In this document: in pieces, positions 10,766-25,672 of the stretch
Layout: each line of letters starts with the position of its first letter
How positions within the stretch are numbered: the stretch's first letter is position 1
Assembly: GCA_040753435.1 (NCBI GenBank)
Contig: JBFMEN010000058.1
Location: forward strand, 18,817 to 82,816
DNA length: 64,000 nt
Direction: 5' to 3'
Source: Candidatus Omnitrophota bacterium
GTDB taxonomy: Bacteria; Omnitrophota; Gorgyraeia; Zapsychrales; JANLHA01
Program-made: the position numbers and the translations under genes
Notes under the pieces: generated by a model
Databases searched by the model: none
Told to the model about the DNA's origin: nothing
Seen by the model: the letters and a program-made list of their open reading frames with translations, nothing else

Positions 10766-10909
10766 GTTACATCTTTTTACACGCGTTACACCAGCGGCAA
10801 AGATCCAATAATTAAAGAAGAAGATGCTGAATCGTATCTGGAATTTGCTTCCTTGAATTATTTCAAGGAGTGGGGCAGGTACGGTCGCAGTAATTTAAAC
10901 GTTATGACA

Positions 10910-10940
10910 GGCGGGTTCCCAAGACCCGCCCTTCTTGTTG
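10910..10940 (+). terminator. Putative rho-independent terminator downstream of the por/DHOD-like unit
   Basis: GGCGGGT-tcccaag-ACCCGCC forms a 7-bp GC-rich stem, followed by a CTTCTTGTTG U-rich tract. Confidence 0.4.
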
Positions 10941-11047
10941 TGGGAAAAAACCTGATTTGAAAATGATCTTGAAAATTTTGCCTGATGCTTAAGAAGATAA
11001 AGAGTTTGTGTTAAAATGAACGCATACTTACAGAGAAAGAAGGGCCC

Positions 11048-13297
11048 ATGTCTCAGCGTTTTCGGCGGGAGATGCTTTCATTTCTGTTAGGTTTTTCCGC
11101 GATCATCATACAGACAATATTATTGCGCGTTTTCCAGACGGTATTTTATGGAAATGAGCTTTCCTATGCTGTTCTTTTGGGGTTCTGGCTTTTATGGGTC
11201 TCTTTTGGGAGTTTTCTTGCGACCCTTGTTTTTTCCAGCAATAAAGCGCCCGGCTCTCTTTGCATTTTATCATTCCTTGCCCTGGCCATGTCCGCGCCGG
11301 CTGTTATTTTCGGCGTCCGTTTTATTCATCCCGTCCTGAATATTTCTCAAGGAGAAATGATCGGCGTTCTGCCCATGGTTATTTCCGCGTTACTGGTAAC
11401 GGCGCCGGTGGGTTTTATTGTCGGCGCTATTTTTGTTTTGTTATGCCTGCAAAGTGGGCGATCTGAAGATTCAAAAGGGCTGGATCCTTCTTTCGTTTAC
11501 TTTCATGAATCTTGCGGCAGCGCGATAGGCGGCGCATTGGTGTCATTGATCTTGTTGCGTCTTTTGACCCCTGTCAGGAGCATGTTATTGTTATCGACCT
11601 TGATGGTTGCCGTCATTTTTGTATCATTGAAAAAAATGGAGGGCATCAAATGGGTAATGATCGCCGTTATATTTTTTCTGGCAAGTTTTCTGATATTGGA
11701 CTTTACTGTTGATCTCGATTTTCTTTCACAAGAGAAGCAATGGCCTTATGGTAAACTTGTGGCCGCTGAAGATTCTCCTTATGCCGGCATTGCCGTTGTC
11801 GAACTGGAAGGAGCGATGAGCGTTTTTCAGAATGGCGTGTTAAGCTTCACGACGAATGATTTTCTTTCCGCGGAAGAAAATGTCCACTTTCCATTGCTTG
11901 TGTATCCGGATCCGCAACGTGTCCTGTTAATAGGAGGCGGGCTTGGAGGTGAAATAGAAGAAATCCTCAAGCATCCGGACGTTTTGCTGGATTATGTGGA
12001 AATTGACCGGGAGATGGTCGATGTGGTGAAACTTTATTTGCCGAGGCCGGAATTTCTTAAGAATCCAAGGGTTCGGATTTATTATCAGGATCCAAGAAAT
12101 TTTATCAGAACAACATCGTCGATATATGATGTGGTGATCGTGAACGCCGGGGATCCTTTGACGGCGGGAACGAACAGGTTTTACACTCTTGAATTTTTGA
12201 CGGAACTGGATCGGGTTCTTGCGGTCGGCGGAATCGCCGGCTTTCGTGTTTCTTCTTCCGAGAATTATTTAAGCGACGAAAATTTATTATTTCTCCGGAC
12301 ATTATTTTCCACCTTTAAAAAAGTTTTCCCCGAAGTCCGTTCCATTCCCGGAGCAACCCATACTTTTCTGGTTTCGAATCTTGAAGATCGTATCGTTTTG
12401 GATGAAGACCAGCTTTCAAGTCAGCTCGCTATTCGCCAAATCAACAATCGATATGTTAATGAAAATACGCTTCCGTTTATTTTAGATGAGCGGCGGATTC
12501 AACAGATGGAAAAACTGTTGAAGTCAGAAGAAGGCCTGATCAACCGCGACCTTTTTCCCCGCGGCTATTTGTTTAATATTCTTTTGTGGTCGACTCATTT
12601 TAACGATGGTCTCAAGAAATTAGTCGTTTCTGTCCAGGCAACGCCCTCCTGGGCGTTAATTGCAATTGTTTCCATGATCTTGCTATCCGCCGGTTTTTTC
12701 TCGGCGAAAAAAAACCGTACCGGTGGAATAGATCTCGCTGTTACTGTTACAGGTTTTTCTGAAATTGTTTTTGAAATTGTTGTGATCCTGTCATTTCAAT
12801 CGCTTTACGGAATTGCTTACGAAAAGATCGGTCTGATTCTGGCGTCTTTTATGCTCGGACTGGTCGCCGGGGCGAGAAAATCCGCTTTTATGAATGCGGG
12901 CGACAAAGAGGAACTCATTGCCGTGTTCAGAAAACTTCAATTTGGAATTATAATTTATCCGCTTCTGTTGCCTGTCATTTTTGTCATATTCAGGGATATG
13001 AGGACAGCGCAAATGTTACCGTCGGTATTCATGTTTCTTTTCACGCTGATTCCGTTTATTGCCGGATTTTTAGGAGGAGCTCAGTATCCCGTAGCCATCG
13101 CCTTGAAGAAAAAAATAGCCGGTGAAACCGAAATGAAGAGCGCCGGATTTCTTTACGCGCTTGATGTTTTGGGAGCGGCCCTGGGCGCACTTCTAACCGG
13201 TGTTTTCTTGATTCCTCTCTTTGGAATTACCGCTGTTTGTGTTCTCTGCTCTTTCATGAGCGCCATCGTTTATTTATTTATCCCTGGAAAAAAGTAG
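11048..13297 (+). CDS. Polytopic membrane protein with an internal spermidine-synthase-like (SAM aminopropyl/methyltransferase fold) domain
   Basis: About 6 TM helices at the N-terminus. A central region carries the SpeE-like GGGLGGE…DYVEID…DVVIVNAGDP signature. Further TM helices follow at the C-terminus. Confidence 0.55.
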   Translation: MSQRFRREMLSFLLGFSAIIIQTILLRVFQTVFYGNELSYAVLLGFWLLWVSFGSFLATLVFSSNKAPGSLCILSFLALAMSAPAVIFGVRFIHPVLNISQGEMIGVLPMVISALLVTAPVGFIVGAIFVLLCLQSGRSEDSKGLDPSFVYFHESCGSAIGGALVSLILLRLLTPVRSMLLLSTLMVAVIFVSLKKMEGIKWVMIAVIFFLASFLILDFTVDLDFLSQEKQWPYGKLVAAEDSPYAGIAVVELEGAMSVFQNGVLSFTTNDFLSAEENVHFPLLVYPDPQRVLLIGGGLGGEIEEILKHPDVLLDYVEIDREMVDVVKLYLPRPEFLKNPRVRIYYQDPRNFIRTTSSIYDVVIVNAGDPLTAGTNRFYTLEFLTELDRVLAVGGIAGFRVSSSENYLSDENLLFLRTLFSTFKKVFPEVRSIPGATHTFLVSNLEDRIVLDEDQLSSQLAIRQINNRYVNENTLPFILDERRIQQMEKLLKSEEGLINRDLFPRGYLFNILLWSTHFNDGLKKLVVSVQATPSWALIAIVSMILLSAGFFSAKKNRTGGIDLAVTVTGFSEIVFEIVVILSFQSLYGIAYEKIGLILASFMLGLVAGARKSAFMNAGDKEELIAVFRKLQFGIIIYPLLLPVIFVIFRDMRTAQMLPSVFMFLFTLIPFIAGFLGGAQYPVAIALKKKIAGETEMKSAGFLYALDVLGAALGALLTGVFLIPLFGITAVCVLCSFMSAIVYLFIPGKK

Positions 13298-13390
13298 AAA
13301 TCCGTCTATAAATCAATACCTTCCGATAATATTGTTTCATGAAGGATGCCGTATAATTATTTTGAATAAAAATAAGAAGGAGCAGGCCGA

Positions 13391-14965
13391 ATGAAAGCGA
13401 GAAGGATCCTTGCAATTGGAATTGTGGCGTCTATTTTGTTAAGCCTTCCGCTGTTAGCGGCGCTTTTTATCGGCGAGCATTGGCGCCTTTTTTCATTTGT
13501 TCCTTTTGATATTTTTGATTGGTTGAGCAGGGTTATTCCCGGATACGTCATTACCGTTGTCATTGATGCGATGGTGCGTTTTATCGCGTTTTTTAATGTC
13601 GGACCTACGGATATAGCGGCGAAGATTATTGAACAATTGATGGGTATCGGTATTTTTATTTTTTTATTGGCCATCATCGGGTTTTTAAATACATGGGGAG
13701 TCATTCGTTTTTCGAAAAAAACCTTCTGGATTGGATTATGCTCAGGTCTTTTTTTATCATTTGCCTTGATTCCAATTCAATTGTTTCTGCGGTCTCCGAT
13801 GAGTGAAAATTTCTCGACCGCGTTTGCCCTGGTGATATGGGCCATCGTGCATGCTTTCTTTGTCCGACAAATCATTTCAGTCCAGAAACCGTTAACATGG
13901 TTGGCAGGATTGACGGGCTTTTCTGTATTGCTGGCGGGTACACTGATGATCGCGGGAAGGGCAATTCCGGCGGGTCCCGAAGGTTTAGCAATGGCAGACA
14001 GGCCTTTGAATGAGGTGCGCCCTTCAACAGAGGCTTTTGGAGTCATGAAAGCGGCCGCCTCGGCAGCGCAACGTTCCGGGATTTTCCCCGTTCCCGGAAC
14101 CAGAGAGGAAATCACGCCCAATGAAAAATTTTTCCGCATTGATATCAACACCCTGCCTCCCAGAATTAATCTTGGCAAATGGAAGGTTCGCGTTGAAGGC
14201 CTTTTTACCCGTGCCCGCGACCTTGCATTTGAGGACCTGATGAAGTATCCGGAAGTGACAGTAGCGGCGACTCTTTCCTGTATTTCCAATCCTGTTGGAG
14301 GGGACTTGATCAGCACCGGATTCTTTACCGGGGTCCGTTTGATTGATGTGCTTAAAGACCTTGGAATTCGAAAGGAAGCGAAGGCATTGGAGATCAGGGC
14401 CGAGGACGGTTATTATGAAACGGTAGTGTACGAGGACATGATCGATCCGCGTACACTCTTGGTTTACGGACTCAACGGAAAAACATTGTCGGTTGAACAA
14501 GGGTTTCCTCTCCGTATTTTTATTGCCAATCGTTATGGGATGAAGCAGCCGAAATGGATCACGCAGATTAAGGCCGTTGAAACTATTGATGAGGGATATT
14601 GGGTGGAAAGAGGATGGAGCTTTGAAGCGCATCCTCAAACAGTATCCGTTATTGATATTATCGTAAAAACCGCTCAATCTGACGGCACAATTCCGATCGG
14701 AGGGATAGCGTGGGCCGGTGACAGAGGGATCCAGAAGGTCGAAATTCAGATTGACGGGGGGGAGTGGACTGAGGTTAAACTCCTGAATCCGCCGCTGAGT
14801 CCGCTTGCATGGGTTTTATGGCGATATGACTGGCCATTTCAGCCAGGAAGACATACCTTTCGCGTCAGAGCTGTAGATGGAACCGGCAAAATACAGGCTG
14901 AAAATCGAAGCGATCCTCATCCCGCCGGTGCTACCGGATATCATCAAATCGAAATGACGTTTTAA
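13391..14965 (+). CDS. Membrane-anchored molybdopterin-dependent oxidoreductase (sulfite-oxidase / MsrP-YedY family catalytic domain)
   Basis: The N-terminal ~200 aa are hydrophobic TM helices. The C-terminal domain carries Moco-oxidoreductase signatures (GLNGKTLSVEQGFPLRIFIANRYGMKQPKWITQIKAV… and a following Ig-like dimerisation-type segment). Confidence 0.55.
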   Translation: MKARRILAIGIVASILLSLPLLAALFIGEHWRLFSFVPFDIFDWLSRVIPGYVITVVIDAMVRFIAFFNVGPTDIAAKIIEQLMGIGIFIFLLAIIGFLNTWGVIRFSKKTFWIGLCSGLFLSFALIPIQLFLRSPMSENFSTAFALVIWAIVHAFFVRQIISVQKPLTWLAGLTGFSVLLAGTLMIAGRAIPAGPEGLAMADRPLNEVRPSTEAFGVMKAAASAAQRSGIFPVPGTREEITPNEKFFRIDINTLPPRINLGKWKVRVEGLFTRARDLAFEDLMKYPEVTVAATLSCISNPVGGDLISTGFFTGVRLIDVLKDLGIRKEAKALEIRAEDGYYETVVYEDMIDPRTLLVYGLNGKTLSVEQGFPLRIFIANRYGMKQPKWITQIKAVETIDEGYWVERGWSFEAHPQTVSVIDIIVKTAQSDGTIPIGGIAWAGDRGIQKVEIQIDGGEWTEVKLLNPPLSPLAWVLWRYDWPFQPGRHTFRVRAVDGTGKIQAENRSDPHPAGATGYHQIEMTF

Positions 14966-15014
14966 TTTGGAAGTCTTTTCCGAATTCCCCCCGGGTTTTT
15001 TATGGATTTGCCCC

Positions 15015-15088
15015 AGAAAATAGCGGAACTCCAATCATCAAAAAATGAATAATGTGTCTATGATATCTCACGAAAGGAGGTGGTGTTT
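15015..15088 (+). repeat. Conserved ~75-nt leader/promoter element, copy A, upstream of small acidic protein A
   Basis: Shares exact blocks AGAAAATAGCGG, TATGATATCT and CGAAAGG(A/G)GGTGGT with copy B at 16356-16430, in the same order and with the same spacing to the start codon. Confidence 0.6.
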
Positions 15089-15268
15089 ATGGATAAGAGA
15101 AAAGATCCCAAGGCAAAACCTGTCAAAGAAATTAAACAGAAATCGCTGGAATGCGAGCCGGATGATGATGATTGCGAACCTTTTTTTGATACCGAAATTA
15201 CGGAAGTTAAAGAGGAATATCATAAAGAATACCACGAGCATGATGATTATGAGGATTTGGAAGAATAA
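15089..15268 (+). CDS. Small (59 aa) basic-N / acidic, Tyr-rich-C protein, paralog A
   Basis: AAAGGAGG RBS sits 8 nt upstream of the ATG. Translation is MDKRKDPKAKPVKEIKQKSLECEPDDDDCEPFFDTEITEVKEEYHKEYHEHDDYEDLEE, whose composition and layout mirror paralog B. Confidence 0.5.
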   Translation: MDKRKDPKAKPVKEIKQKSLECEPDDDDCEPFFDTEITEVKEEYHKEYHEHDDYEDLEE

Positions 15269-15305
15269 ATAAAAATTATTATTTTAACAACAAAGGAGGT
15301 TAACC

Positions 15306-16253
15306 GTGCCAGATGTAGTGAGTCTTATTTCATGGGGAGCGATTTTTGCTGGTGTTGTTTTGATCCTGGCGTTTCAATTTATGTTTTCAGTGCTTGATTT
15401 GGCCCTGGGACTTTCCAGGATTAAACCGGCGGAAAACGGAAAAGAGGCGGGAAAAGTTTTAAAAGGAACGGCCATCGGCTGGATTATCGGGAGTTTGGTT
15501 GCCGTTTTTCTGGGAACATGGGTCACTGGAAGTTTAACGGGAGATATTTCTCCGTTTGATGCCATGCTTCATGGTGTTGTGGTATGGGGATTGACGGTGG
15601 TGATTGGAGCCTTTATTATTTCAAGCGCCGCCGGGACAATGCTTGGGGGAGCCATGGGCCTGTTGATGAGCAGCATTACTTCTGCCGCGCGTGCCGCACG
15701 CAAAGCGATTCACGGGGCGGTACCGCAAATTCAGGAATCGGTTCAGGAGAGAGGCGGGATTGAACAGCAATGGGCTAAGATGCGCTCTCAAATTGAAGAA
15801 ATTCTGAGAGAAACTGGAAAACCGGAACTTCAACCGGAGCACATGAAAGCCCAGGTTCAGGCGGAAGCGCAACGGACAAAGGCTCAGGGACAACAAGCAT
15901 CCCAGGACCCCCAGCAAATTCGTCAGGAATTGGAATCGGCTTTAAAAAGGATTCTGGAAGAAGGAGTTAAAACCACCCGTGGAGTTGACAAAGAAGCAAT
16001 AGCCAATGTCATCGAAAAACAAACGCATATGAGCCATGAGAAGGCTCAATCCACGGCTGATCGATGGGTATCGACTTACGAGCAGACAATTCCCAAGGTC
16101 CAGGAAAAGGTTGAGATGGCCAAGGAAAAAGCGGAAGAGGCTGCACAAAAGACTTCTGAAGTGGTCAGCAGTGCAGCGAAATGGTCCTTTGTGATGCTTT
16201 TTTTAACATTAATTATTGCCGCTTTAGGCAGTTGGGTCGGAACTTTAACCTGA
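15306..16253 (+). CDS. Membrane protein: 4 N-terminal TM helices, long charged Q/E/K-rich coiled-coil-like segment, C-terminal TM helix
   Basis: AGGAGG RBS precedes a GTG start. The hydrophobic N-terminus (…AIFAGVVLILAFQFMF…GWIIGSLVAVFLGTWV…VVVWGLTVVIGAFII…) is followed by a ~170-aa hydrophilic helical region and a terminal WSFVMLFLTLIIAALGSWVG helix. No family was recognised. Confidence 0.5.
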   Translation: MPDVVSLISWGAIFAGVVLILAFQFMFSVLDLALGLSRIKPAENGKEAGKVLKGTAIGWIIGSLVAVFLGTWVTGSLTGDISPFDAMLHGVVVWGLTVVIGAFIISSAAGTMLGGAMGLLMSSITSAARAARKAIHGAVPQIQESVQERGGIEQQWAKMRSQIEEILRETGKPELQPEHMKAQVQAEAQRTKAQGQQASQDPQQIRQELESALKRILEEGVKTTRGVDKEAIANVIEKQTHMSHEKAQSTADRWVSTYEQTIPKVQEKVEMAKEKAEEAAQKTSEVVSSAAKWSFVMLFLTLIIAALGSWVGTLT

Positions 16254-16355
16254 GACTGATATATAGCGGACAATTTCAGTTTAAGAAATCATGAATTGTC
16301 CGCTTTTTTATAATTTGTCAATGCCTCTTTGAAATTCGTTTTGGGGACTTTTAAT

Positions 16356-16430
16356 AGAAAATAGCGGCATGAGGAACATCACAAAATAATGTTTCGTGAA
16401 TATGATATCTGGCGAAAGGGGGTGGTCATA
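16356..16430 (+). repeat. Conserved ~75-nt leader/promoter element, copy B
   Basis: See copy A; the same three conserved blocks occur in the same order. Confidence 0.6.
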
Positions 16431-16574
16431 GTGGATAGAAAAAATGAAAGGCAGAAGGAAAATAAGAAGAAAAAGAAAGAGGTTTCCGATGACTATGAGG
16501 ATTGGAAAGCTGTTTATGGGAATGAAAGCTATGCTAATCCCGATGATTTTGCTGAATATGAAGAGGAAGAGTAG
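16431..16574 (+). CDS. Small basic-N / acidic, Tyr-rich-C protein, paralog B
   Basis: GTG at 16431 is preceded by a GGGGGTGG RBS-like block. Translation is (M)DRKNERQKENKKKKKEVSDDYEDWKAVYGNESYANPDDFAEYEEEE. The track's upstream ATG at 16389 lies inside the conserved leader and lacks an RBS. Confidence 0.45.
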   Translation: MDRKNERQKENKKKKKEVSDDYEDWKAVYGNESYANPDDFAEYEEEE

Positions 16575-16675
16575 GAACTTAAGAATTTAAACGATCCGTT
16601 TTCCGTATCAACCTGCTAAATCGTCAGCTTGGCGATAAAATTTTGCGTGATGAAATTTGCTTTTCGCTGGCAGCC

Positions 16676-16705
16676 GGTCATTTAAAAAATGACCAAAGAT
16701 TTTTT
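16676..16705 (+). terminator. Putative terminator after paralog B
   Basis: GGTCATTT-aaa-AAATGACC forms an 8-bp stem followed by AAGATTTTTT. Confidence 0.35.
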
Positions 16706-16868
16706 CCACGTAAAGCGCTGCGGCACAAGCCGTAAATTTCAAAAGAGTTTTTAAGAATTCTCGACGTGTCATAATATGATTTTTATTAGATTAGATTGCA
16801 GGACGCATGACACAAGACACATGAAAAAATTGGGTTTTGTGTCCTGTGTCGTGAGTCCTGTCGCTTGT

Positions 16869-17846
16869 TCACTTCCATATCCCCGGAATTTTTTCACCGC
16901 AGTTTCCGCAACGGCCTTCAACGATATTATTTTGTAAAATCCTGAATCCCGCCCGCTCAATTAATATTTTTTTGCAAGAAGGACAATACGTGCTGTTGCC
17001 CGCATGGCCCGGAATGTTTCCGACATAAACGTATTTAAGACCGGTTTCTCTGCCGATCTCCCATGCCCTGTCGAGAATTGAGGTCGGCGTGGGCGGGAGA
17101 TTTTTGAGCTGATGCATCGGCCAGAATTTAGAAAAGTGAAGAGGGGTATCTTCACCGCAGTAATCCTTTACCCATTTGCACAGGTCTCTGATATCGGTTT
17201 CACGGTCGTTCCATGTCGGGACAACCAAATTAGTGATTTCGACCCAAACATGATTTTTTTTCATAGTGATGATGGCATCTTGCACTGGTTTGAGACTGGC
17301 CTGACTCATTCGTTGATAGAATTGGTCAGTGATGCCTTTCAAGTCAACATTGGCTGCATGAACATGAGGGCATAAATCAATCAGCGGTTGTTGATTAATA
17401 TAACCGGCAGTGACAAGGACGTTCAGTATTCCTGAGATATTTGCTAGTTTGCTTGTATCGTAGGTGTATTCATAAAAAACCACAGGATCCGAATAGGTGT
17501 AGGCGATGGAGCGACAGCGTTCGGATAAGGCGGCCTGGACAGTTTGTTCCGGAGATAAATTATAATTGGTGAGCGCTTCAGGGGGTTGCTGGGAAATCTG
17601 CCAGTTTTGACAGTACTTGCAATGCAAGTTACATCCGGCTGTAGCAATTGAAAACGAAGAAGAGCCGGGCAGGACATGAAAAAGAGGCTTTTTTTCAATA
17701 GGGTCCACATGAATGGAGCAAGGGCTTCCGTATACGAGGGTTTGCAGTTTTCCGTCAAGGTTCAGCCGTACTCTGCAATCCCCACGCTGTCCGGGTTTTA
17801 ACCGGCAAGCCCTTGGACAAAGGAGACATTCAATCGTTTTCTTCAT
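16869..17846 (-). CDS. AmmeMemoRadiSam-system-type radical SAM enzyme (AmrS / PFL-activase-like)
   Basis: The N-terminus CLLCPRACRLKPGQRGDCRVRLNLDGKLQTLVYG…HVDPIEKKPLFHVLPGSSSFSIATAGCNLHCKYCQNWQIS follows the AmrS family pattern. It has a radical SAM CxxxCxxC cluster plus an extra N-terminal Cys cluster and a C-terminal Zn-ribbon-like CPSC…CGNC. Confidence 0.7.
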   Translation of the reverse strand: MKKTIECLLCPRACRLKPGQRGDCRVRLNLDGKLQTLVYGSPCSIHVDPIEKKPLFHVLPGSSSFSIATAGCNLHCKYCQNWQISQQPPEALTNYNLSPEQTVQAALSERCRSIAYTYSDPVVFYEYTYDTSKLANISGILNVLVTAGYINQQPLIDLCPHVHAANVDLKGITDQFYQRMSQASLKPVQDAIITMKKNHVWVEITNLVVPTWNDRETDIRDLCKWVKDYCGEDTPLHFSKFWPMHQLKNLPPTPTSILDRAWEIGRETGLKYVYVGNIPGHAGNSTYCPSCKKILIERAGFRILQNNIVEGRCGNCGEKIPGIWK

Positions 17847-19323
17847 GGTCGACCGTGCGCCAGTATTTAGCAGGGGAAGGAGTAATACCTTCCTCTTCGA
17901 GTTTTTTCAGGACATCCTGAATGTTACTATAAGCTTTAGTATCTTCGTTGACAATGGTTTTCCGGACCGGTGTCTTCCCGGTAATCGAATAAATGGAATT
18001 TGCGACAACAAAAATGAGCAGGATTACAGAAAAACCCGTCGCCAGTATAAAAAAGTTATTCTGAATCCGGTTGCTTTTTAAGACTGAATCTGAATGGCAA
18101 TGGTCACAATAAAAACATTCCGCGCAATCCGTGCAGGGATAAGAAGATGATGAACGTTTTTTTAAAATTTTAAACTGCGAGAACAGCGCGAGAACAGCGC
18201 CGAAAGGGCATAGATATTTGCACCAGAAACGTTGATAAAAAAAAGAGGCGCCCATAACTGCCGCCGCCAGAAGCCATGCCCCGATAGACCGAGTCCCGTT
18301 AAATACGGTCAGATAAACCTCGATCGCGCCTAAACCAGAATGTGCGAACCAGAGACTTGAACTCAGGATCAGGATCAGTGAAACATATTTAATCCAGCGA
18401 CAGATAGTATCTGTTTTAAGATTTGGGCTGGCTGTGCGCTTGAAGAGCTTTTTATTGATATGAAAAAGAAGTTCTTCGACGAAAGCAAACGGGCAGATTC
18501 CGGAGCAATAAATACGTCCGAGAAGAAAAGCCGTAATGAACGCCCCAAATAGCAGCAGGTAAAGGTCAGGCTGGGATGTCAGGGCCGGGAGCTGCCCCAG
18601 AACGGTTCCGGCCACATGCATGAGCGAAAGCATGTTGCCCGTGATAAGACCGATGATGATGAATCCTGAGGACAATGTTAACCAGCGGAGAATCGGATTT
18701 TTTTTCAGGCAACCAACAACAGCCAGAATAAAAATTAATGTCAAGGCCGGGATTAACAGGAGTTTGTCGGGTTTAAGGATACGAGTTCGGTTGATGGATT
18801 CGTTTTGAATTTTTCTTGATAAAAGGGAAGGCAAAACTTTTGTGGCCGCTTGATTGATTGTTTCAAGCACGGCCCGGCTTGTTATGGTAGCGCCGCTAAT
18901 TCCATCGATATCGTCCGAAAGGGTTAAGGGACTTTCAATATTTTTACCAATTAATTGTTGCATGAAATCAGGAAGGGAGGATGTCAATCCCGGAGTTTCA
19001 TGGTGCTGTAAGATTTGTGCGGTGATGATTTTTCCATTTGGGTCAATCACAACAACCAGATGGATTGGACCTGCATAACCGGAGACGCCGGTGACAATAT
19101 CTGAAGTGAAAAAATAATATCCGATCAGATTATGATCCTTGTCAAATACCTGATAACAGGGGAAATCTGTGGCGGCCGGCCGGGTAAAAACTGCCTGGGG
19201 GAAAAAGTCTCCAGTGCCTGGACGGGGAATATTTTCCCGGGTTTTGGTTGAAGTGAACCTGGAAATCGTCCCGAAAGAAACGATAATCAAGAAAAGGATC
19301 AGGAAAAGACGATAAGGTTTCAT
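17830..19323 (-). CDS. NosR/NapH-like membrane redox protein: periplasmic FMN-binding domain + TM helices + polyferredoxin (CxxxCP) domain
   Basis: A signal/anchor (MKPYRLFLILFLIIVSF) is followed by an FMN_bind signature (DGISGATITSRAV), multiple TM helices, then CSGICPFAF, CKYLCPFGAV and CTDCAECFYCDHC iron-sulfur motifs. It overlaps the downstream AmrS gene by 17 nt. Confidence 0.6.
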   Translation of the reverse strand: MKPYRLFLILFLIIVSFGTISRFTSTKTRENIPRPGTGDFFPQAVFTRPAATDFPCYQVFDKDHNLIGYYFFTSDIVTGVSGYAGPIHLVVVIDPNGKIITAQILQHHETPGLTSSLPDFMQQLIGKNIESPLTLSDDIDGISGATITSRAVLETINQAATKVLPSLLSRKIQNESINRTRILKPDKLLLIPALTLIFILAVVGCLKKNPILRWLTLSSGFIIIGLITGNMLSLMHVAGTVLGQLPALTSQPDLYLLLFGAFITAFLLGRIYCSGICPFAFVEELLFHINKKLFKRTASPNLKTDTICRWIKYVSLILILSSSLWFAHSGLGAIEVYLTVFNGTRSIGAWLLAAAVMGASFFYQRFWCKYLCPFGAVLALFSQFKILKKRSSSSYPCTDCAECFYCDHCHSDSVLKSNRIQNNFFILATGFSVILLIFVVANSIYSITGKTPVRKTIVNEDTKAYSNIQDVLKKLEEEGITPSPAKYWRTVDHEEND

Positions 19324-19423
19324 GTGTAATTATTTTAAGCACAGGGGTTTAAGAATGCAATGGAAAAAGAGGAGATTGATGATATAATTTAGCCTGTAAT
19401 TTCAATCATTTAATCGTATATTA

Positions 19424-20212
19424 ATGAATAAAAATTTTAGTTACATTTATGGCCCCGTTTATTCCTGGCGATTGGGAGTGTCTTTGGGGATTGATCCAAT
19501 CGGTCAGAAAAGGAAATATTGCAATTTTAACTGTGTTTATTGTCAGTTGGGGAAGACCCCTGTGCTGACAGGAAAGCGCAGCGTTTTTGTCCCTGCCCGT
19601 GCGGTCCTGGATGAAGTTAATGCGCTTGACCCCAATCTCAAACTGGACTATCTGACTTTCTCCGGTCGCGGGGAACCTACCCTGGCAAACAATCTGGGCG
19701 AAATGATTGATCTGTTGAAGCAACACCGACGGGAGAAAATCGCCGTCATTACAAACTCCGGATTAATGGGAAATCCCGGGGTCCGTTCGGATCTTTTAAA
19801 AGCGGATTTTGTCCTGGCAAAACTTGATGCCTGCGAGGAGAAATCTTTTGAAACGGTAGACAGGCCGTTGCCTTCTCAAACGCTGTCATCGATTGTTGAT
19901 GGCCTGAAGATGTTTTCCAAAGAGTTTAAAGGGAAGCTGGCATTACAGATGATGTTTATCGACCTGAACAAACATTGTGCGCCAGAAATGGCCAGAATAG
20001 CTGAGGAGATCGATCCGGATGAAATTGAATTGAATACTCCTCTTCGCCCCTGTGCCGTCCGGCCTCTTTCCAGTGAAGAAATGCTTGAGATTAAATCATT
20101 TTTTCATCGCTCAACCGTGATGGTTTATGAGCGGGAAAAGAAAGACGTTACGGCCATGGATGAAAAACAGACTGTGCGGCGTCATGGAAAATATCTGGAA
20201 GAAAATGAGTAA
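19424..20212 (+). CDS. Small radical SAM protein (262 aa), family not resolved
   Basis: GPVYSWRLGVSLGIDPIG…CNFNCVYCQLG has a CxxxCxxC cluster at residues ~33-40, and GEPTL is also present. It reads directly into the histidine kinase gene with a 2-nt gap. Confidence 0.6.
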   Translation: MNKNFSYIYGPVYSWRLGVSLGIDPIGQKRKYCNFNCVYCQLGKTPVLTGKRSVFVPARAVLDEVNALDPNLKLDYLTFSGRGEPTLANNLGEMIDLLKQHRREKIAVITNSGLMGNPGVRSDLLKADFVLAKLDACEEKSFETVDRPLPSQTLSSIVDGLKMFSKEFKGKLALQMMFIDLNKHCAPEMARIAEEIDPDEIELNTPLRPCAVRPLSSEEMLEIKSFFHRSTVMVYEREKKDVTAMDEKQTVRRHGKYLEENE

Positions 20213-20214
20213 GG

Positions 20215-20922
20215 ATGGAAGAATATTCCCCGGAAAAAATTGTTGAGCTTGAAAACAAGGTAAGATCGTTGCCCCAGCGGATTATTGAGGTCCAGGAGGC
20301 CGAACGGCATCGGATCGCGAAAGAGATCCACGATGATCTGGGACAGTCATTGGCCGCGCTCAAGATGCTCATACAGTCCAGCGTTCTTCCGGAATATATT
20401 ACTGATGCATCTAACCGCAGGGCTTATCAGCGCGTCGTTGATTATATCGATGAGATTATCGAAAAGACGCGGGACATCGCCACTGCCCTGCGGCCCAAGA
20501 TCATTGAAACTATGGGATTGACCCGGGCAATTAAAAAGATGCTGGCCGGGTTTCGTAAAAATAAAGGACTTCATATCAAAGCCCAGGTTGGTAATCTCAA
20601 TGACATCAAGTTCGAAAGTTCTTCCATTAATCTGTATCGTATCGTTCAGGAAGCCCTGGCCAATTTGTATCATCATGCAGAAGCGACAAGTGTTGAAGTG
20701 CTCTTCCGGCGAGGGAAACAATCTTTGACCATGACCATTAAAGATAATGGTAAGGGTTTTTTCCCACATAAGGCATCAAAAGGAACAGGTCATGCGAGTA
20801 AACACGGGCTGTCGACCATGTATGAAAGGGCCAGGCTTTTAGGGGGAGAGCTGGAGATTGAGTCTGAGCCGGGAAAAGGGACTCTGATCCGTCTGCACAT
20901 TCCAATTTCGATTAAAGAGTAG
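20215..20922 (+). CDS. Cytoplasmic sensor histidine kinase, HisKA_3/NarX-type, no sensor or TM domain
   Basis: A coiled-coil N-terminus leads to an H-box (ERHRIAKEIHDDLGQSLAALKM) and an HATPase_c domain (N, G1, G2 boxes). It is only 235 aa. Confidence 0.8.
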   Translation: MEEYSPEKIVELENKVRSLPQRIIEVQEAERHRIAKEIHDDLGQSLAALKMLIQSSVLPEYITDASNRRAYQRVVDYIDEIIEKTRDIATALRPKIIETMGLTRAIKKMLAGFRKNKGLHIKAQVGNLNDIKFESSSINLYRIVQEALANLYHHAEATSVEVLFRRGKQSLTMTIKDNGKGFFPHKASKGTGHASKHGLSTMYERARLLGGELEIESEPGKGTLIRLHIPISIKE

Positions 20923-20930
20923 GGGACAGT

Positions 20931-21587
20931 ATGGATGAAAAATCCATTAAAATCATTCTGGCCGACGATCACTTGATGTTTCGCGCGGGTTTAAAGACCT
21001 TGATCGAGCGCTCAGACCGTTTTCTTGTTGTCGATGAGGCAAGCAATGGCGAAGAGCTCCTGGCAAAACTGAAAGGGGGGCGATGCGATCTCGTCGTTAT
21101 GGACCTTTCGATGCCAAAAATGGGAGGCTTGGAGGCGCTCAGCAAGATTGCGGCAAAGTATCCGCGAATCAGGGTCCTTGTGCTGACAATGCAGAAAGAC
21201 ACGCATTATTTTCATCGCACCATGTCGACAGGAGCCTGCGGATATGTTTTGAAAGATGACGCCTTTGAGCAGCTTGTCGAGGCGATCGATATTATTTTGA
21301 CTGGTAAAGAGTTTGTTTCTCCATCGATCAGATCATTGCTTGACGAGCAAAGCGGCGAGACGGTTAAAGAAGAGAAGGTTCTCCCGCCTGTTGATTTGCT
21401 CACGAAGAGGGAGCGCCAGGTGTTGAAACTTATCGCTTCCGGGGATGCCAATAAAAATATCGCCAAACAGCTTGGTATCAGCATTCGGACGGTGGAAGTC
21501 CATCGTTCAAACCTGATCAGGAAACTGGGAATCAAAACCACGGCGGGTTTGGTTAAATATTCGATGGCGGAAGCGTTTAAAGAATAA
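20931..21587 (+). CDS. NarL/LuxR-family response regulator (REC + HTH)
   Basis: The REC domain begins IKIILADDHLMFRAGL…DLVVMDLSMP. The C-terminal LuxR HTH is LTKRERQVLKLIASGDANKNIAKQLGISIRTVEVHRSNLIRKLG. Confidence 0.85.
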   Translation: MDEKSIKIILADDHLMFRAGLKTLIERSDRFLVVDEASNGEELLAKLKGGRCDLVVMDLSMPKMGGLEALSKIAAKYPRIRVLVLTMQKDTHYFHRTMSTGACGYVLKDDAFEQLVEAIDIILTGKEFVSPSIRSLLDEQSGETVKEEKVLPPVDLLTKRERQVLKLIASGDANKNIAKQLGISIRTVEVHRSNLIRKLGIKTTAGLVKYSMAEAFKE

Positions 21588-21683
21588 GCGTTGCTTGTAT
21601 TTAATATGAATTTTTTCTTTTTTTATCGTCAGACTTGTTTATACTAATAACATAATATTAAAATATAACACGTTACAAAAGAT

Positions 21684-22124
21684 ATGAGTGAAGAAAATTC
21701 ATCCCAGGCCCATCAGGATAATCAGAAAGCGGAACAGCCAAACGAACAGAAGCCCGAAGGTCTCCGTAAAATTTTGAATTCGTTTGACGAGAAACCGGGC
21801 GATTCTGGACCTGACGAGAGCGGGGCACAGCCTCCGAAGGAAGAAGATTCTCCTGAAGAGCTGCCTTTACCGCCTCTGAAAGAGGAGACGCCCCAGGCTG
21901 AGGCTGTTTCTGAAACCACGGCTCCTGAAATCAAAGAACAGCACGAGAAGACAGGATCGAGCGATGAACTCTCGCCGGCCATACCCCCTGATTCCAGGGA
22001 GGGGGACGCTTCCCGGATTGATCCTGAACAAATCATTTCTGAAGCGATGAAAAAGCTTGATAAATTACTCGAAGAGATCAAAAAGAATGAGTTTAAGCCT
22101 GATGAGCACGTTAATGAAGGGTGA
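21684..22124 (+). CDS. Acidic, Pro/Glu/Ser-rich low-complexity protein (likely intrinsically disordered)
   Basis: An ORF with strongly biased composition (EEDSPEELPLPPLKEETPQAEAVSETTAPEIKE…). No domain was recognised, and its coding status rests on ORF length and context only. Confidence 0.35.
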   Translation: MSEENSSQAHQDNQKAEQPNEQKPEGLRKILNSFDEKPGDSGPDESGAQPPKEEDSPEELPLPPLKEETPQAEAVSETTAPEIKEQHEKTGSSDELSPAIPPDSREGDASRIDPEQIISEAMKKLDKLLEEIKKNEFKPDEHVNEG

Positions 22125-22152
22125 CATTCTTTAATCCGATTGATATGGAAAA

Positions 22153-24273
22153 ATGCAAATCATCAGCCGCTTTAAAAGTTTTTTAACCTCATCGTTATTC
22201 CTTCCGTTCATATTATCATTCGCTGTCTGGATTTTTGCCTTTCGTGGATTTGTATTCGGCTCTCTTGCCTTTGTTGAAGATGCCGTCTCATATCTCAATC
22301 AGACTAAATTTTTGACAGATTCCATGCTCCAGGGCACGTTGCTTCTATGGAGCAGTGAAGCTTTCGGAATGCCCAATGACTTTTTTCTATTGCGTCTGGG
22401 CGCCTTTAATCCGTTGTTCGTCATAATCACGCTGCTGAGATCTGCGGGAATTCCTTTCTTTGTTGTCTATGTCTGGTCCATGGCCGGATATTATTTTCTG
22501 GGGTGCTGCGGGTTTTATTTTCTTTCAAAGCGAATAACTGGACACCGGCTGGCCGCATTGATGGGATTTCTGTTATTATATTTCTCCGCGCTCGGCACGA
22601 GGATCTTTGATTCTTACATTATTCTTGTCTTTGTTCCGTTAATGTGGTTTTTCTTTTTCATCGTGGATTTCTTCACCGCGCCTTCAAGGAAAAGTTTCAT
22701 CGGTAGCGTTTTTACCATGATGCTTTTGTTGAGCACATATATCCCGTTTTACTTCCTGTTTATCTTGCTGGTTTTCCTGGTATTTATGGCAGTGGTTTTT
22801 CCAAAAAAATTTTTAAACAAAACCAGCCAATTAGTTTCATTTATCGCAAGCAACAAGATTCTTTGTTTCTGCGGGCTCATTGCGCTGCTTGTAGCCTTGA
22901 TCCCGGGAGTTTTCTTTTTTCAGTCTTCACACAGAGGGGAGTTTGTTATGCCGTTACGGCATGATTTGCTTTCGTCAAATGACGCGGCGCTTGAAGTTCA
23001 TCCCAGGGTGACATCAACATGGGCCTCGATTGAGGATATTGCTTTTTCAAATTATTTTACCGATTTGCGTCAAATGAAATTCGCCATTATCTATGTGCCG
23101 TTTTTGACCTGGATTTTGTTAAGTCTTGGCCTGTTAACAAAAATGACAAAACGTTTTTTATTTTATTTTCTGTTCGCAGGTTTTTTTCTGGCTCTGGGAA
23201 TTCCGCAAGACCTTCCGTTATATCAGTTTTTGCATGAGCGCATTTTCTTTTTTAAATATTTCCGGAATCTTCATTTTTTTTTATGGTGGGTGATCCTTCC
23301 TGTGATGTTTCTGTTAATTGCAGAACAAACCGGGCAAATTTTAGGAATGCTGAAACACCGACGAAGATTCGATTTAATTGTCCTGTTAGCGCTGCACATA
23401 ATGTGGTTATACGTGATTTTTAAACAACCGGATTATATTTTATCCACCGTCATTTCCATTCTGCTCAGCTGGATTTTTTTCACGTTGATCTGGCTGGGGG
23501 CGGATCAAAAAAAGGTGCTTTGGCTCGGATTAGGCGCTATGGTTGTTTTTTCCGCGCAACCGCTCGAAGTGTTTTTTCATTTAAGTTCTAATTCGAAAAG
23601 CAAAGAGCAGCCGTATTATTTCGAGCGAATCAAAGAAAAGTCATCTTATCTGAATGATGCGCTTGATGCTTCCGGCGCAGTGTCGTTTTATATCGCCATG
23701 AATCAGGTTGTTACTCTACAAAATAATCTTCCGCCGGAAATTTTTTATCGTTATTCATTGCCGGAATTTGTTGTTTACGATCAGTTCAAAATGCTTAAGG
23801 AACCCGCAGACTGGAATGAGATTTCGGATTCTTTTAAAGGGGAGAGAAATATTGTTTTCGTTGAAGACTGGGACGAGAAATTTTTACTTGCCGGGAAGCA
23901 GAAGCGCCGGATTCCCATTGAAGGACCCGGGCAAGGCGTTAATGTTATTTCCGACCGGCCCAATCAGTTAAAGGTTGAAACATTTTTTGACCAGCCCAAG
24001 CTCCTGGTTTTCAATGATACATTCTCGCCCCATTGGAAGGCAGACATTGATGGAGTCTCAACCCGGGTTTATAAAGCGAATCTGGCGTTTAAAGGGGTTT
24101 ACGTTCCTGACGGGAAGCATACTGTCACCTTGCGTTTCGAAAAACATTTATGGATCAATCGGGGCGTCTGGCTGGTTTTTATGTCTGTATTTGCAGCGTT
24201 ATTATTTTTTTCATTAACCGATAAACGGTTTTGTGGCGAATGCGATGAAAGCCTTTTTCCAAAAAATTGTTAG
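22153..24273 (+). CDS. YfhO-like polytopic membrane protein (GT-C-type glycosyltransferase family)
   Basis: About 14 predicted TM helices precede a C-terminal soluble domain ending …FSPHWKADIDGVSTRVYKANLAFKGVYVPDGKHTVTLRFE, which matches the conserved Y.PGWKA.VDG…RAN.AF..V.VP.G.H.V.F.Y tail of YfhO-family proteins. Confidence 0.55.
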   Translation: MQIISRFKSFLTSSLFLPFILSFAVWIFAFRGFVFGSLAFVEDAVSYLNQTKFLTDSMLQGTLLLWSSEAFGMPNDFFLLRLGAFNPLFVIITLLRSAGIPFFVVYVWSMAGYYFLGCCGFYFLSKRITGHRLAALMGFLLLYFSALGTRIFDSYIILVFVPLMWFFFFIVDFFTAPSRKSFIGSVFTMMLLLSTYIPFYFLFILLVFLVFMAVVFPKKFLNKTSQLVSFIASNKILCFCGLIALLVALIPGVFFFQSSHRGEFVMPLRHDLLSSNDAALEVHPRVTSTWASIEDIAFSNYFTDLRQMKFAIIYVPFLTWILLSLGLLTKMTKRFLFYFLFAGFFLALGIPQDLPLYQFLHERIFFFKYFRNLHFFLWWVILPVMFLLIAEQTGQILGMLKHRRRFDLIVLLALHIMWLYVIFKQPDYILSTVISILLSWIFFTLIWLGADQKKVLWLGLGAMVVFSAQPLEVFFHLSSNSKSKEQPYYFERIKEKSSYLNDALDASGAVSFYIAMNQVVTLQNNLPPEIFYRYSLPEFVVYDQFKMLKEPADWNEISDSFKGERNIVFVEDWDEKFLLAGKQKRRIPIEGPGQGVNVISDRPNQLKVETFFDQPKLLVFNDTFSPHWKADIDGVSTRVYKANLAFKGVYVPDGKHTVTLRFEKHLWINRGVWLVFMSVFAALLFFSLTDKRFCGECDESLFPKNC

Positions 24274-25168
24274 ATCGTCCGGATGGCTGTTCTCGCGGGC
24301 AGGGTTCTTTTATCTGGCCGTGTTTCTGGCGATGGGCATGTTCATTGATATCGAAAAGATCTGGGGCAACGCAAGGATCCGGTCAATGAATCGAATCATG
24401 CCGTTGTTCGAGGACCTGGCTTCAAACCTGGTCGCCGGCAAGTCCCTGACTTTCGATCAATGGCAAGAATATGCTTTGTACTATCAAAAGATTTCGGAGT
24501 TGATACCGGCCGATCCCGGCGCTTATTTTTTCCTTGGTTATTGTTTGAGTCATTTGAACAGGGAGGAAGAAGCTCTTTCCAATTTTGAAAAAGCCGTTCA
24601 AAAGGCGCCCGGAGTTTTTTGGTTCGAATATAATCTCGCGATGGCCTATTATAAAAAAGCTGATTATGAAAAAGCGGGCGAGTTTTTTCGCAGAAGCATT
24701 GATTCAGGGGCAGCAGCCGCGCAATTTTATATGAGAAATTCCACGCTATATAAACAAGTTCTTGCAAGCGCGTTGAGACAGGGGTTTGATCCCGAGACAT
24801 CGTTTAACGCATCTTTTGCGCATGCCCATATCATGACGGCACGTTGTCTTTATGAATTGGGAAAGTACGATCAGGCTATTCAGTTAGCCTATTATCATTT
24901 GAGACGGGGACTGGGAGCGCCGCAAGATTATTATTATCTGATTGCTTTAAGCCTGAAAGCAACTGGAAAGCTGACAGATATGATGTCAGTGCTTCAGCTT
25001 TTGCTGAAACATGACCCGGATCATCTTGGCGCTTGGCAGATGATGCGGGAGTTTTTTATCAGGGTTCAGGACTTGGAGAATGTGAAGCGCGCCGAACTTA
25101 AGCTGGAGTATCTGCGGAAAGATGGACCGGATGTTGATAAGGCGGTGAGACAACAAAAGCTCATGTGA
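24233..25168 (+). CDS. TPR-repeat protein (start uncertain)
   Basis: Repeated TPR-like helices are visible (…AYFFLGYCLSHLNREEEALSNFEKAVQKAP…YNLAMAYYKKADYEKAGEFFRRSI…). It overlaps the YfhO-like gene by ~40 nt at the track's start; later in-frame ATGs are possible. Confidence 0.55.
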   Translation: MANAMKAFFQKIVRSSGWLFSRAGFFYLAVFLAMGMFIDIEKIWGNARIRSMNRIMPLFEDLASNLVAGKSLTFDQWQEYALYYQKISELIPADPGAYFFLGYCLSHLNREEEALSNFEKAVQKAPGVFWFEYNLAMAYYKKADYEKAGEFFRRSIDSGAAAAQFYMRNSTLYKQVLASALRQGFDPETSFNASFAHAHIMTARCLYELGKYDQAIQLAYYHLRRGLGAPQDYYYLIALSLKATGKLTDMMSVLQLLLKHDPDHLGAWQMMREFFIRVQDLENVKRAELKLEYLRKDGPDVDKAVRQQKLM

Positions 25169-25271
25169 TTTATTTTTTTTGTCATGTTGAATTCTTTTTC
25201 CGTTTATTGTCTCTTATTTGTTTAATGCTATACTAAGTTAAAACAGAATCACAATTAGTAACGGGGGCCTT

Positions 25272-25667
25272 ATGCCAAAACGAATCCTGGTGGTCGATGA
25301 TGAGGAAGATATCGTTGCAATCCTTAAAGCCAGACTGGAGAATGCCGGTTATGAGGTAGATGTGGCCTACGACGGAAAGCAGGGATTAGAGAAAATCAGG
25401 GAGCGTAAACCGGATCTGGCGATTTTTGACATTATGATGCCGGAAATTAATGGTTCGACTCTCTGCGGCATGCTGAAATTCGATGAACGGTTTAAGGATA
25501 TTGCGATTATTATTTTAACAGCGAAAGGACGGGAACTGGACAAAGAGATTTCCCATACCGTTGGCGCTGATGCCTATATGGTCAAACCTTTTGAAACACA
25601 AGTTCTTCTGGATACTGTCGCTCATCTGTTGACAGGAGCGGATGATCGGGGGGGAGTAATCCAATAA
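25272..25667 (+). CDS. Stand-alone receiver (REC-only, CheY-like) response regulator
   Basis: KRILVVDDEEDIV…DLAIFDIMMPEINGSTLCGMLK…AYMVKPF; no output domain is present. Confidence 0.85.
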   Translation: MPKRILVVDDEEDIVAILKARLENAGYEVDVAYDGKQGLEKIRERKPDLAIFDIMMPEINGSTLCGMLKFDERFKDIAIIILTAKGRELDKEISHTVGADAYMVKPFETQVLLDTVAHLLTGADDRGGVIQ

Positions 25668-25672
25668 ACAAG

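Follow-up and report, generated by a model that had tools for sequence, protein, structure and literature searches.

A membrane-bound variant of the AmmeMemoRadiSam system in Candidatus Omnitrophota, with a flavin/iron-sulfur membrane protein as the predicted partner of the radical SAM enzyme

What does a radical S-adenosylmethionine (SAM) enzyme of the AmmeMemoRadiSam type do beside a flavin/iron-sulfur membrane protein, with neither AMMECR1 nor Memo encoded nearby? The question is raised by a gene pair on a 64,000-nucleotide stretch (hereafter the window) of a Candidatus Omnitrophota metagenome-assembled genome (MAG), contig JBFMEN010000058.1. Memo and AMMECR1, whose conservation extends from archaea to humans, have links to human disease, and the biochemical function of Memo, AMMECR1 and the radical SAM enzyme has been open since their common neighborhood was noticed in 2007. 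That neighborhood, together with AMMECR1-Memo fusions, was described by Balaji & Aravind 2007, with a predicted role in RNA modification (PMC2034487). An earlier note on the window, made from the sequence alone, described the radical SAM gene as an orphan, translationally coupled to a NosR/NapH-like membrane protein that would be its dedicated electron-delivery partner. On balance, our analysis favors the view that the pair forms the core of a variant AmmeMemoRadiSam system that is conserved, modular and bound to the membrane, and in which the membrane protein (C2) would tether the radical SAM enzyme (AmrS) and supply it with electrons, probably outside the cytoplasm. The coordinates of all features are collected in Table 1.

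The assignment of the radical SAM protein to the AmrS family was borne out by the hidden Markov model (HMM) TIGR04337, against which it scored 373.9 bits (curated cut-off 220). The Pfam Radical_SAM model gave 55 bits, and the cluster motif CxxxCxxC reads C72-N-L-H-C76-K-Y-C79 in the translation. The identity weighed against AmrS in the earlier note, an activase of pyruvate formate-lyase (PFL) or anaerobic ribonucleotide reductase, was rejected, as TIGR02493 gave 46.0 bits against a cut-off of 231.75 and TIGR02494 gave 26.2 against 174.35; all glycyl-radical activase models were far under their cut-offs. The nearest solved structure was PflA (3c8f, E = 1.7e-5), and the nearest relatives of the protein were from Omnitrophota (60-71% identity). 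NCBI names for proteins 100% identical to those of the window are 'FMN-binding protein' for C2 and 'hypothetical protein AB1650_07325' for another. The TIGR04337 alignment of the window AmrS began at model position 10, and the open reading frame (ORF) thus lacks positions 1-9 (A-M-Y-Y-E-K-L...) of the family N-terminus; it also has no signal peptide. The absence of AMMECR1 and Memo from the neighborhood was confirmed, since a Pfam scan of the genes in the first ~42 kb found neither domain and tblastn with 20 AmrB-AmrA (Memo-AMMECR1) fusion probes found no match anywhere in the 64 kb. Neither tRNAs nor Rfam families were detected in the window, and a promoter/terminator consensus scan around the operon gave uninformative matches.

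The architecture proposed for the partner, a domain binding flavin mononucleotide (FMN) joined to transmembrane (TM) helices and CxxxCP motifs, was likewise recovered. Pfam matched FMN_bind (PF04205) to residues 82-160 of C2 with 68 bits and Fer4_5 (PF12801) twice, and the AlphaFold2 model (mean pLDDT, the predicted local distance difference test score, 79) placed, after an N-terminal anchor helix, the FMN domain and then five TM helices, followed by a Cys-rich loop, the seventh TM helix (419-448) and a tail of 50 residues. The loop, C-x2-C-x2-C-x2-C-x2-C, was modeled with low confidence. The two CX3CP motifs sit at the same ends of TM4 and TM6, after helices H252-268 and H347-362, and the side of the model that holds them and the Cys-rich sites is the predicted cytoplasmic face. 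This order corresponds to the topology known for NosR from experiment, with one helix added, and the added C-terminal helix would return the tail to the FMN side. In an alignment of 37 C2 family members, the FMN-domain core and both CX3CP motifs (C273, C277, P278, C368, C372) were invariant; in the predicted flavinylation site, A145 was invariant and T146 was at least 90% conserved. C2 has the make-up by which a 'NapH-like system' is defined, namely a PF12801 membrane protein whose extracytosolic FMN_bind domain contains [S/T]GA[S/T]; this ApbE target motif and the flavinylated 'NapH-like systems' were surveyed by Meheust et al. 2021 (PMC8238504). The main text and part of the supplements of that survey mention no association with radical SAM, Memo, AMMECR1 or spermidine synthase proteins.

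C2 resembles NosR/NirI and PceC/RdhC in its N-terminal extracytoplasmic FMN_bind domain with [S/T]GA[S/T], its two CX3CP motifs (PF12801), its cytoplasmic Cys-rich segment, and the proposed electron transfer across the membrane to or from an extracytoplasmic enzyme. In contrast to NosR and NapH, it scored far under the cut-offs of both curated models (98.6 bits against 1000 for NosR/NirI, NF046105, the match covering no more than the FMN region at the N-terminus and a portion of the membrane core; 65.5 against 213 for NapH/MauN, TIGR02163), its cytoplasmic ferredoxin region is much shorter, it has the additional helix and a tail with an AmrS N-terminal segment, and its client would be a radical SAM enzyme instead of a respiratory reductase. 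The match to the RnfG model was also under cut-off. Foldseek matched only RnfG/NqrC, and only to the FMN domain; a solved relative of the NapH-like core was not among the listed fold-search hits. No nosZ or nir gene was linked to C2 in the window survey or in more than 160 related loci, where the linked genes were AmrS, C1 (a polytopic membrane protein described below) and the AmrB-AmrA fusion (AmrBA).

To what extent the pair is a unit was examined in 80 genome loci with AmrS relatives (at least 49% identity), all neighboring ORFs of which were clustered. A C2 module adjoined or lay near AmrS in about 47 of the 80, and C2-AmrS loci span Omnitrophota, Planctomycetota, Gamma- and Deltaproteobacteria, Spirochaetes and Methylomirabilis. 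C2 stands directly upstream of AmrS in essentially all close Omnitrophota relatives, and also in Sedimenticola, Chromatiaceae, Deltaproteobacteria, Planctomycetia, Spirochaetes and Methylomirabilis MAGs. In the reciprocal test, a metagenome scan driven by the alignment of the 37 C2 sequences, AmrS, C1 or AmrBA was found near 45 of 57 strong C2 relatives. Where 5 kb or more of flanking sequence was available on each side, a system partner was present in 18/18 and AmrS itself in 16/18; of the generic NapH-like loci of comparable room, 0/7 had any of these genes. The C2-AmrS adjacency is far beyond chance. Pairs of C2 and AmrS also occur without AmrBA and even without C1 (L011, L015, L046, L060, L064, L071 and L075 in our numbering of loci), which ties C2 to AmrS itself. 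Together with the gene fusions and the split AmrS N-terminus described below, this conserved reciprocal adjacency upholds the suggestion that C2 is a dedicated AmrS partner.

In contrast, the description of the window gene as an orphan did not stand. The third component, C3, is an AmrB(Memo)-AmrA(AMMECR1) fusion of ~490-590 aa that scored above cut-off with both TIGR04336 (223 bits) and TIGR04335 (165 bits); it is commonly encoded in Omnitrophota and lies in the same cluster in related Omnitrophota and in other phyla. All five of five Omnitrophota AmrBA examined share a cluster of Lgt, C2 (or its FMN_bind-only remnant), AmrS between two small ORFs, AmrBA and a convergent C1. In Pirellulales the order is AmrS, AmrBA and a C1-C2 fusion protein of 1180-1340 aa; in Sedimenticola and Chromatiaceae it is the C1-C2 fusion, AmrS and AmrBA; and in cultured Prolixibacter it is AmrBA, C1 and AmrS. 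The window has C2 followed by AmrS, with C1 convergent, and no AmrBA. As homologous clusters include the AmrB-AmrA fusion and the window retains C1 and a small ORF, the locus is best read as a reduced form of an extended AmmeMemoRadiSam system; judged from gene order, it is a variant that has apparently lost or relocated AmrBA, with three unrelated genes inserted between AmrS and C1.

Several further observations concern these clusters. Lgt lies directly upstream in the same orientation in L161, L162, L164, L165, L167 and L168, members of an Omnitrophota clade whose AmrBA has a lipoprotein-type signal. In L161, C2 has shrunk to a 192-aa FMN_bind-only protein, and a tiny anchor small ORF is all that remains in L162 and L164. 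A divergent branch (~30% identity) shows C1 followed by C2 and no AmrS within +/-6 kb (L094, L159, and also the truncated L092, L099, L115 and L127); the C1-C2 unit of this branch may work without AmrS or with a distant AmrS.

The presence of AmrBA in related clusters brings up another client for C2. C2 might serve the exported AmrBA, as NosR serves periplasmic NosZ, and stand beside AmrS only through a common pathway. Complete C2-AmrS-AmrBA-C1 clusters in Omnitrophota and Pirellulales, export signals on all AmrBA fusions in these clusters, and the typical role of NapH-like flavinylated proteins in feeding extracytoplasmic oxidoreductases (PMC8238504) are in keeping with this. However, at least 25 loci, including the window, keep C2-AmrS without AmrBA within +/-8 kb (64 kb in the window), C2 is about equally frequent with and without a local AmrBA, and the C2 tail bears a segment of AmrS, not of AmrBA. 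We therefore regard AmrBA as the sole client of C2 as quite improbable, while C2 could serve both AmrS and AmrBA, which is compatible with the tethering of AmrS by C2.

How AmrS and C2 might be joined is suggested by the gene boundary. Both ORFs and their 17-nt overlap on the minus strand were confirmed directly on the sequence, the partner frame reading ...GTC GAC CAT GAA GAA AAC GAT TGA and the AmrS frame ATG AAG AAA ACG ATT GAA TGT. The C2 tail segment A-K-Y-W-R-T-V-D corresponds to TIGR04337 positions 1-8, and a conceptual chimera of C2 tail and AmrS aligned from position 1 with 380.0 bits, as compared with 373.9 bits for AmrS by itself. In several lineages the AmrS frame reaches upstream through an E-A-x-[YF]-Y motif into a signal or anchor, and these full-length forms align to TIGR04337 from model position 2-3 with the motif contiguous with AmrS, indicating that A-M-Y-Y-E-K-L (positions 1-7) is the canonical N-terminus of the family. 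The motif, with consensus ...LSD[RKH]EA.[FY][YW][KR]K[VI][ED], ends 37 C2 proteins and 26 single-TM small ORFs directly after C2. C2 is devoid of the motif tail wherever AmrS retains its own anchor and motif, the Pirellulales C1-C2 fusions bear it with the AmrS gene ~4 kb away, and in Zixibacteria an anchor small ORF is present without C2. Since the gene boundary cuts a conserved AmrS N-terminus, the overlap is more than translational coupling; the overlap reported in the earlier note stands, and coupling as a full account of it does not. Because the C2 tail encodes the N-terminal segment missing from the AmrS ORF, the two proteins are predicted to dock. The simplest reading of these sequences is a split protein, in which a membrane-anchored peptide would give AmrS its first strand in trans and so dock the enzyme.

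The same collinearity could also arise if C2 and AmrS were one polypeptide, produced by programmed +1 frameshifting at the 17-nt overlap or cut apart by an assembly error in a fused gene, since the tail and the AmrS ORF follow the family model and are only a +1 offset and one extra residue apart. Yet two-frame overlaps of 4, 8, 7-14 and 17 nt, with no common slippery site, recur in independent MAGs, which argues that the frame split is not an assembly error; the distance of the Pirellulales tail from its AmrS gene and the many loci with the motif on a separate small ORF speak against frameshifting as well. We consider a single polypeptide extremely unlikely and prefer the split protein.

A putative second piece of the AmrS N-terminus was found in the 615-bp apparent gap after AmrS, where a previously uncalled small ORF begins with MTRREFLKT..., continues through a hydrophobic stretch and ends with ...HHAKFYRQADDLAG. 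It contains the twin-arginine motif S/T-R-R-x-F-L-K and a hydrophobic region (M-T-R-R-E-F-L-K-T-LLKFTACAAALYV). Homologues with the motif occur across phyla in at least 59 of 112 loci and have their starts at -19 to +177 nt relative to the AmrS stop, with few farther off than 100 nt. The Omnitrophota small ORFs join a near-consensus twin-arginine motif to the AmrS N-terminal motif, and the small ORF can be aligned along its whole length with the extension at the N-terminus of full-length Prolixibacter AmrS (E = 2e-7). Moreover, the small ORF and an intrinsic AmrS N-terminal motif or signal are mutually exclusive (0/10 as compared with 57/100; Fisher p = 4e-4). The Pirellulales type starts with MTRR(K/E)F(I/L) and ends with ...PRKF(V/I)RA(V/I)R.KKYPG..KP..DI.KQ.KWSG (L044, L048-L051, L062, L085, L096, L100-L117 and others). 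The L019 small ORF (MKPKQMSRRSFLKIF...) gave a weak match to TIGR02811 (20.5 bits, cut-off 48.45), the 'formate dehydrogenase region TAT target' family of very small proteins with twin-arginine translocation (Tat) signals beside an exported iron-sulfur (Fe-S) or molybdenum (Mo) enzyme. If the system is exported, the small ORF may, tentatively and judging from these alignments, be a detached 'signal + N-terminal strand' piece of AmrS.

A conserved gene for a short peptide, in translational coupling with a radical SAM gene, also calls to mind precursors of ribosomally synthesized and post-translationally modified peptides (RiPPs), such as PqqA (E-x3-Y) and the mycofactocin precursor MftA (C-terminal Tyr). 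The small ORF and the EA-x-YY tails could then be peptide substrates or cofactor precursors modified by AmrS, the product being exported and processed by AmrBA; the small ORFs have conserved aromatic residues and a conserved C-terminal Gly, and Memo lies within the ring-opening dioxygenase superfamily (PMC2034487). However, the motif equals TIGR04337 positions 1-7 and is a covalent part of AmrS in full-length and canonical forms, the small ORF excludes an intrinsic AmrS N-terminus, and the Pirellulales small ORFs do not have the motif. A substrate role is thus very unlikely in our judgment, as compared with that of a detached piece of AmrS.

The commonest companion of this AmrS subfamily, found in 45 of the 80 loci and convergent with AmrS in the window, was C1, a protein with an Arg-rich N-terminus and a spermidine-synthase-like AdoMet-fold domain between two blocks of seven TM helices. 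Its AlphaFold2 model had a pLDDT of 86.7 and a predicted template modeling score (pTM) of 0.87. Foldseek matches of the domain in the PDB were to SpeE only (target-normalised TM-score 0.74-0.79), and no solved relative of the membrane domain was among the listed fold-search hits. NCBI names C1 relatives as membrane-anchored or fused spermidine synthase-like proteins, and C1 shares the SpeE fold and overall architecture with PRK03612/NF037959 'fused MFS/spermidine synthase' (MFS, major facilitator superfamily). Unlike these, it missed all curated cut-offs (PRK03612, 135.9 bits against 472; TIGR00417, 93.3 against 249.55), it is linked and fused to C2/AmrS, and its domain is predicted to face outward. 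The window C1 has GGGLGG and VNAGDP at the acidic positions of aminopropyltransferases, and both positions (GGG(D/E)G and the catalytic Asp of D-x-x-D-P) are non-acidic in 41/41 family members, with the adenosyl-binding residues kept. Because both catalytic acidic residues are missing throughout the family, a true spermidine synthase was ruled out. The outward orientation of the AdoMet-fold domain is predicted because the C1-C2 fusion junction places the C1 C-terminus inside.

On which side of the membrane would AmrS then dock? Five independent predictions point outward. By helix parity, the C2 model has five TM helices between the FMN domain and the Cys loop and one more before the tail. By the positive-inside rule, 24 single-TM anchors carry 0.40 as compared with 0.12 K+R per residue on their two sides, 16 being N-in and 2 the reverse. 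RR/KR-type or Sec-like N-terminal signals are found on the full-length AmrS of Prolixibacter, L052, L058, L065, L074 and others, and export signals on 20/20 AmrB-AmrA fusions, several of them lipoprotein-type. The fifth is the C1 model. The docking place is thus most likely extracytoplasmic, beside the predicted covalent-FMN domain, as far as models and signal predictions can tell. This makes the route implied in the earlier note, from a cytoplasmic polyferredoxin to a cytoplasmic enzyme, less likely than delivery by covalent FMN at the outer face.

The competing explanation is that AmrS stays cytoplasmic and that the iron-sulfur sites of C2 on that face (CX3CP and the Cys-rich loop) pass low-potential electrons from quinol or, via FMN, from an outer donor. 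All characterized radical SAM enzymes are cytoplasmic and need SAM, the window AmrS ORF has no signal peptide, the C2 sites do face the cytoplasm in the model, and the gene linkage fits this arrangement equally well. It is opposed by the position of the AmrS N-terminal segment past the extra TM helix, on the other side from the Cys loop, by the predicted N-in/C-out orientation of the motif-bearing single-TM anchors, and by the N-terminal signals or anchors of full-length AmrS forms. In addition, it leaves the Tat-like small ORF unexplained, and inward transfer from quinol to the radical SAM cluster would be strongly uphill and opposed by the membrane potential. Hence, we regard a cytoplasmic AmrS as unlikely and favor docking outside the cytoplasm.

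Under extracytoplasmic docking, C2 would be a NosR/NapH-type transmembrane conduit in which the cytoplasmic-face CX3CP/Cys iron-sulfur sites are wired to an outer, ApbE-flavinylated FMN domain. Its tail, past the last TM helix, would carry the first ~8 residues of the AmrS fold, and AmrS would dock on it non-covalently by strand complementation, next to the FMN domain. PFL-activase-type radical SAM enzymes have flavodoxin, an FMN protein, as their physiological reductant, and the covalent FMN domain may be a built-in, flavodoxin-like reductant of the AmrS cluster. As with flavodoxin/ferredoxin and PFL activases, FMN is the proposed one-electron donor to a radical SAM [4Fe-4S] cluster; unlike flavodoxin, the C2 flavin would be covalent, membrane-anchored, extracytoplasmic and encoded beside its client, in an RnfG/NqrC-like domain of unrelated fold.

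Docking outside the cytoplasm would imply that AmrS is exported fully folded. In some lineages this may be achieved by its own N-terminal twin-arginine-type signal, whereas in split systems of the window type AmrS would hitchhike on the small downstream ORF. Iron-sulfur proteins are known to leave the cell folded via Tat, sometimes as hitchhikers, and the hydrogenase and formate dehydrogenase subunits that do so are likewise signal-less Fe-S proteins beside a partner with a twin-arginine signal (PMC10924467). Unlike in these cases, the signal partner here has only ~50 aa and is itself a predicted detached N-terminal fragment of its passenger, a radical SAM enzyme. C1, with its outward AdoMet-fold domain, and the exported lipoprotein AmrB-AmrA fusion, where present, would complete the machine, which in the window may be reduced to four components, C2, AmrS, C1 and the small ORF; its 64 kb contain no AmrBA.

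In its fullest form, this scheme places a whole radical SAM system outside the cytoplasmic membrane: a Tat-exported, folded AmrS (with its own signal or hitchhiking) clipped onto the C2 tail, reduced by periplasmic covalent FMN, with C1 supplying or retaining SAM and AmrBA co-acting on an envelope or lipid substrate. We offer it as a tentative possibility, held with less than even confidence. An envelope or lipid target is suggested by the predicted location and by a polyprenyl diphosphate synthase gene between AmrS and convergent C1 in six Omnitrophota loci (L028, L032, L035, L036, L039 and L054). These clusters do not contain C2, and the synthase is of the heptaprenyl/octaprenyl type (~250 bits, under equivalog cut-offs); the substrate might accordingly be an isoprenoid or a lipid.

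A number of points weigh against export and C2-based tethering. We know of no radical SAM enzyme that acts outside the cytoplasm and of no periplasmic source of S-adenosylmethionine, and the topology of C2, AmrS and C1 rests on prediction. The Sec-like signals or anchors on AmrS in L074, L046, L075 and L097 are hard to square with the export of a folded Fe-S protein. The C2 tail and the downstream small ORF both bear the same N-terminal strand, and their joint service of one AmrS core is unexplained, as is the role of the Pirellulales small ORFs that are devoid of the EA-x-YY motif. Support from the curated Tat-signal model TIGR01409 is marginal: the window small ORF scored 12.3 bits (cut-off 16.7), relatives gave 16.7, 20.3, 15.6, 13.6, 13.0 and 11.7 with several showing no match, only 2 of 16 sequences reached the cut-off, and the Prolixibacter extensions did not match. 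No ApbE domain was found among the window genes scanned, nor were Tat genes found in the window. Finally, C2 is missing from clusters that keep AmrS, AmrBA and C1 (Prolixibacter, L162 and L164), showing that it is not indispensable.

As compared with the known AmmeMemoRadiSam system (TIGR04335/TIGR04336/TIGR04337), the window AmrS is a clear HMM member, and related clusters have the AmrB-AmrA fusion alongside. This subfamily differs in that its AmrBA carries export signals, its AmrS is apparently membrane-tethered, N-terminally split or signal-bearing, and it is accompanied by two polytopic membrane proteins, C1 and C2, along with one or two small ORFs; the window itself has neither AmrA nor AmrB. 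The published prediction of cytoplasmic RNA-base modification misfits this branch because the machine is predicted to be exported to the envelope. A 2019 study by Burroughs et al. (JBC 294:10211) reportedly widened the contexts of Memo and linked it to isoprenoid modification, and may already have published some of the association of C1 and C2. In the literature we found no description of an exported radical SAM enzyme, nor any account of the consistently outward topology, of C1-C2 fusions read as a Rosetta stone, of a split AmrS N-terminus or of the small Tat-like ORF.

The variant offers testable handles on a long-open system: the putative dedicated redox partner of AmrS, a docking interface predicted from the split N-terminal strand, an AdoMet-fold membrane protein and a predicted envelope location. 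The system also occurs in cultured Prolixibacter species, which makes genetics and biochemistry feasible. If AmrS is indeed extracytoplasmic, no radical SAM enzyme before it would have been shown to act outside the cytoplasm, and one would have to ask how the periplasm is provided with SAM and low-potential electrons. Flavinylated NapH-like conduits would gain a new class of client, and Tat hitchhiking a new, split-gene form.

Table 1. Coordinates of the AmrS-C2 locus and neighboring features in the window.
Feature	Position	Strand	Basis
C1, 749 aa: 7 TM, AdoMet-fold domain (~residues 236-500), 7 TM	11048..13297	plus	recurrence, fusion, AlphaFold2, Foldseek
524-aa protein, N-terminal multi-TM + sulfite-oxidase/MsrP-like molybdopterin domain	13391..14965	plus	Oxidored_molyb 113.7 bits, Mo-co_dimer
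315-aa membrane/coiled-coil protein, no family match	15306..16253	plus	
Small ORF, 54 aa, previously uncalled	16608..16772	minus	96 nt downstream of AmrS; homologues in relatives
AmrS core, 325 aa	16869..17846	minus	TIGR04337 match, Pfam Radical_SAM match, ORF confirmed
C2, partner, 497 aa	17830..19323	minus	Pfam FMN_bind + 2x Fer4_5; AlphaFold2 model
C2 tail segment A-K-Y-W-R-T-V-D, matching TIGR04337 positions 1-8	17848..17871	minus	chimera HMM alignment; partner frame, runs into AmrS start
Region spanning two CX3CP motifs of C2	18205..18507	minus	CSGICP 18490..18507; CKYLCP 18205..18222
S-G-A-T, C2 residues 143-146, predicted ApbE flavinylation site in extracytoplasmic FMN domain	18886..18897	minus	[S/T]GA[S/T] match + conservation
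Unclassified 262-aa radical SAM protein, divergent	19424..20212	plus	best matches: tungsten-cofactor maturase and MoaA, far under cut-off
HisKA_3/LuxR two-component pair	20215..21587	plus	

Among the other genes of the window, the three that lie between C1 and the AmrS/small ORF unit do so in this genome only; AmrS and C1 are directly adjacent in close relatives. One of the three encodes a membrane-fused periplasmic Mo enzyme, which might be a second client of the flavinylated conduit; this gene is not conserved. The radical SAM gene upstream of C2 and the two-component pair that follows it were considered as members of the system and rejected, being syntenic only in the closest relatives (L002, L003, L006 and L027). 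GC skew was positive across the window (1..64000) and nearly all genes lie on the plus strand, the only minus-strand units being the C2-AmrS-small ORF operon and an MTHFR gene (33240..34109). Markers of an anaerobic lifestyle were also present, namely NrdD/NrdG (3108..5899) and a 1235-aa ORF (5945..9652) that resembles pyruvate:ferredoxin oxidoreductase by eye.

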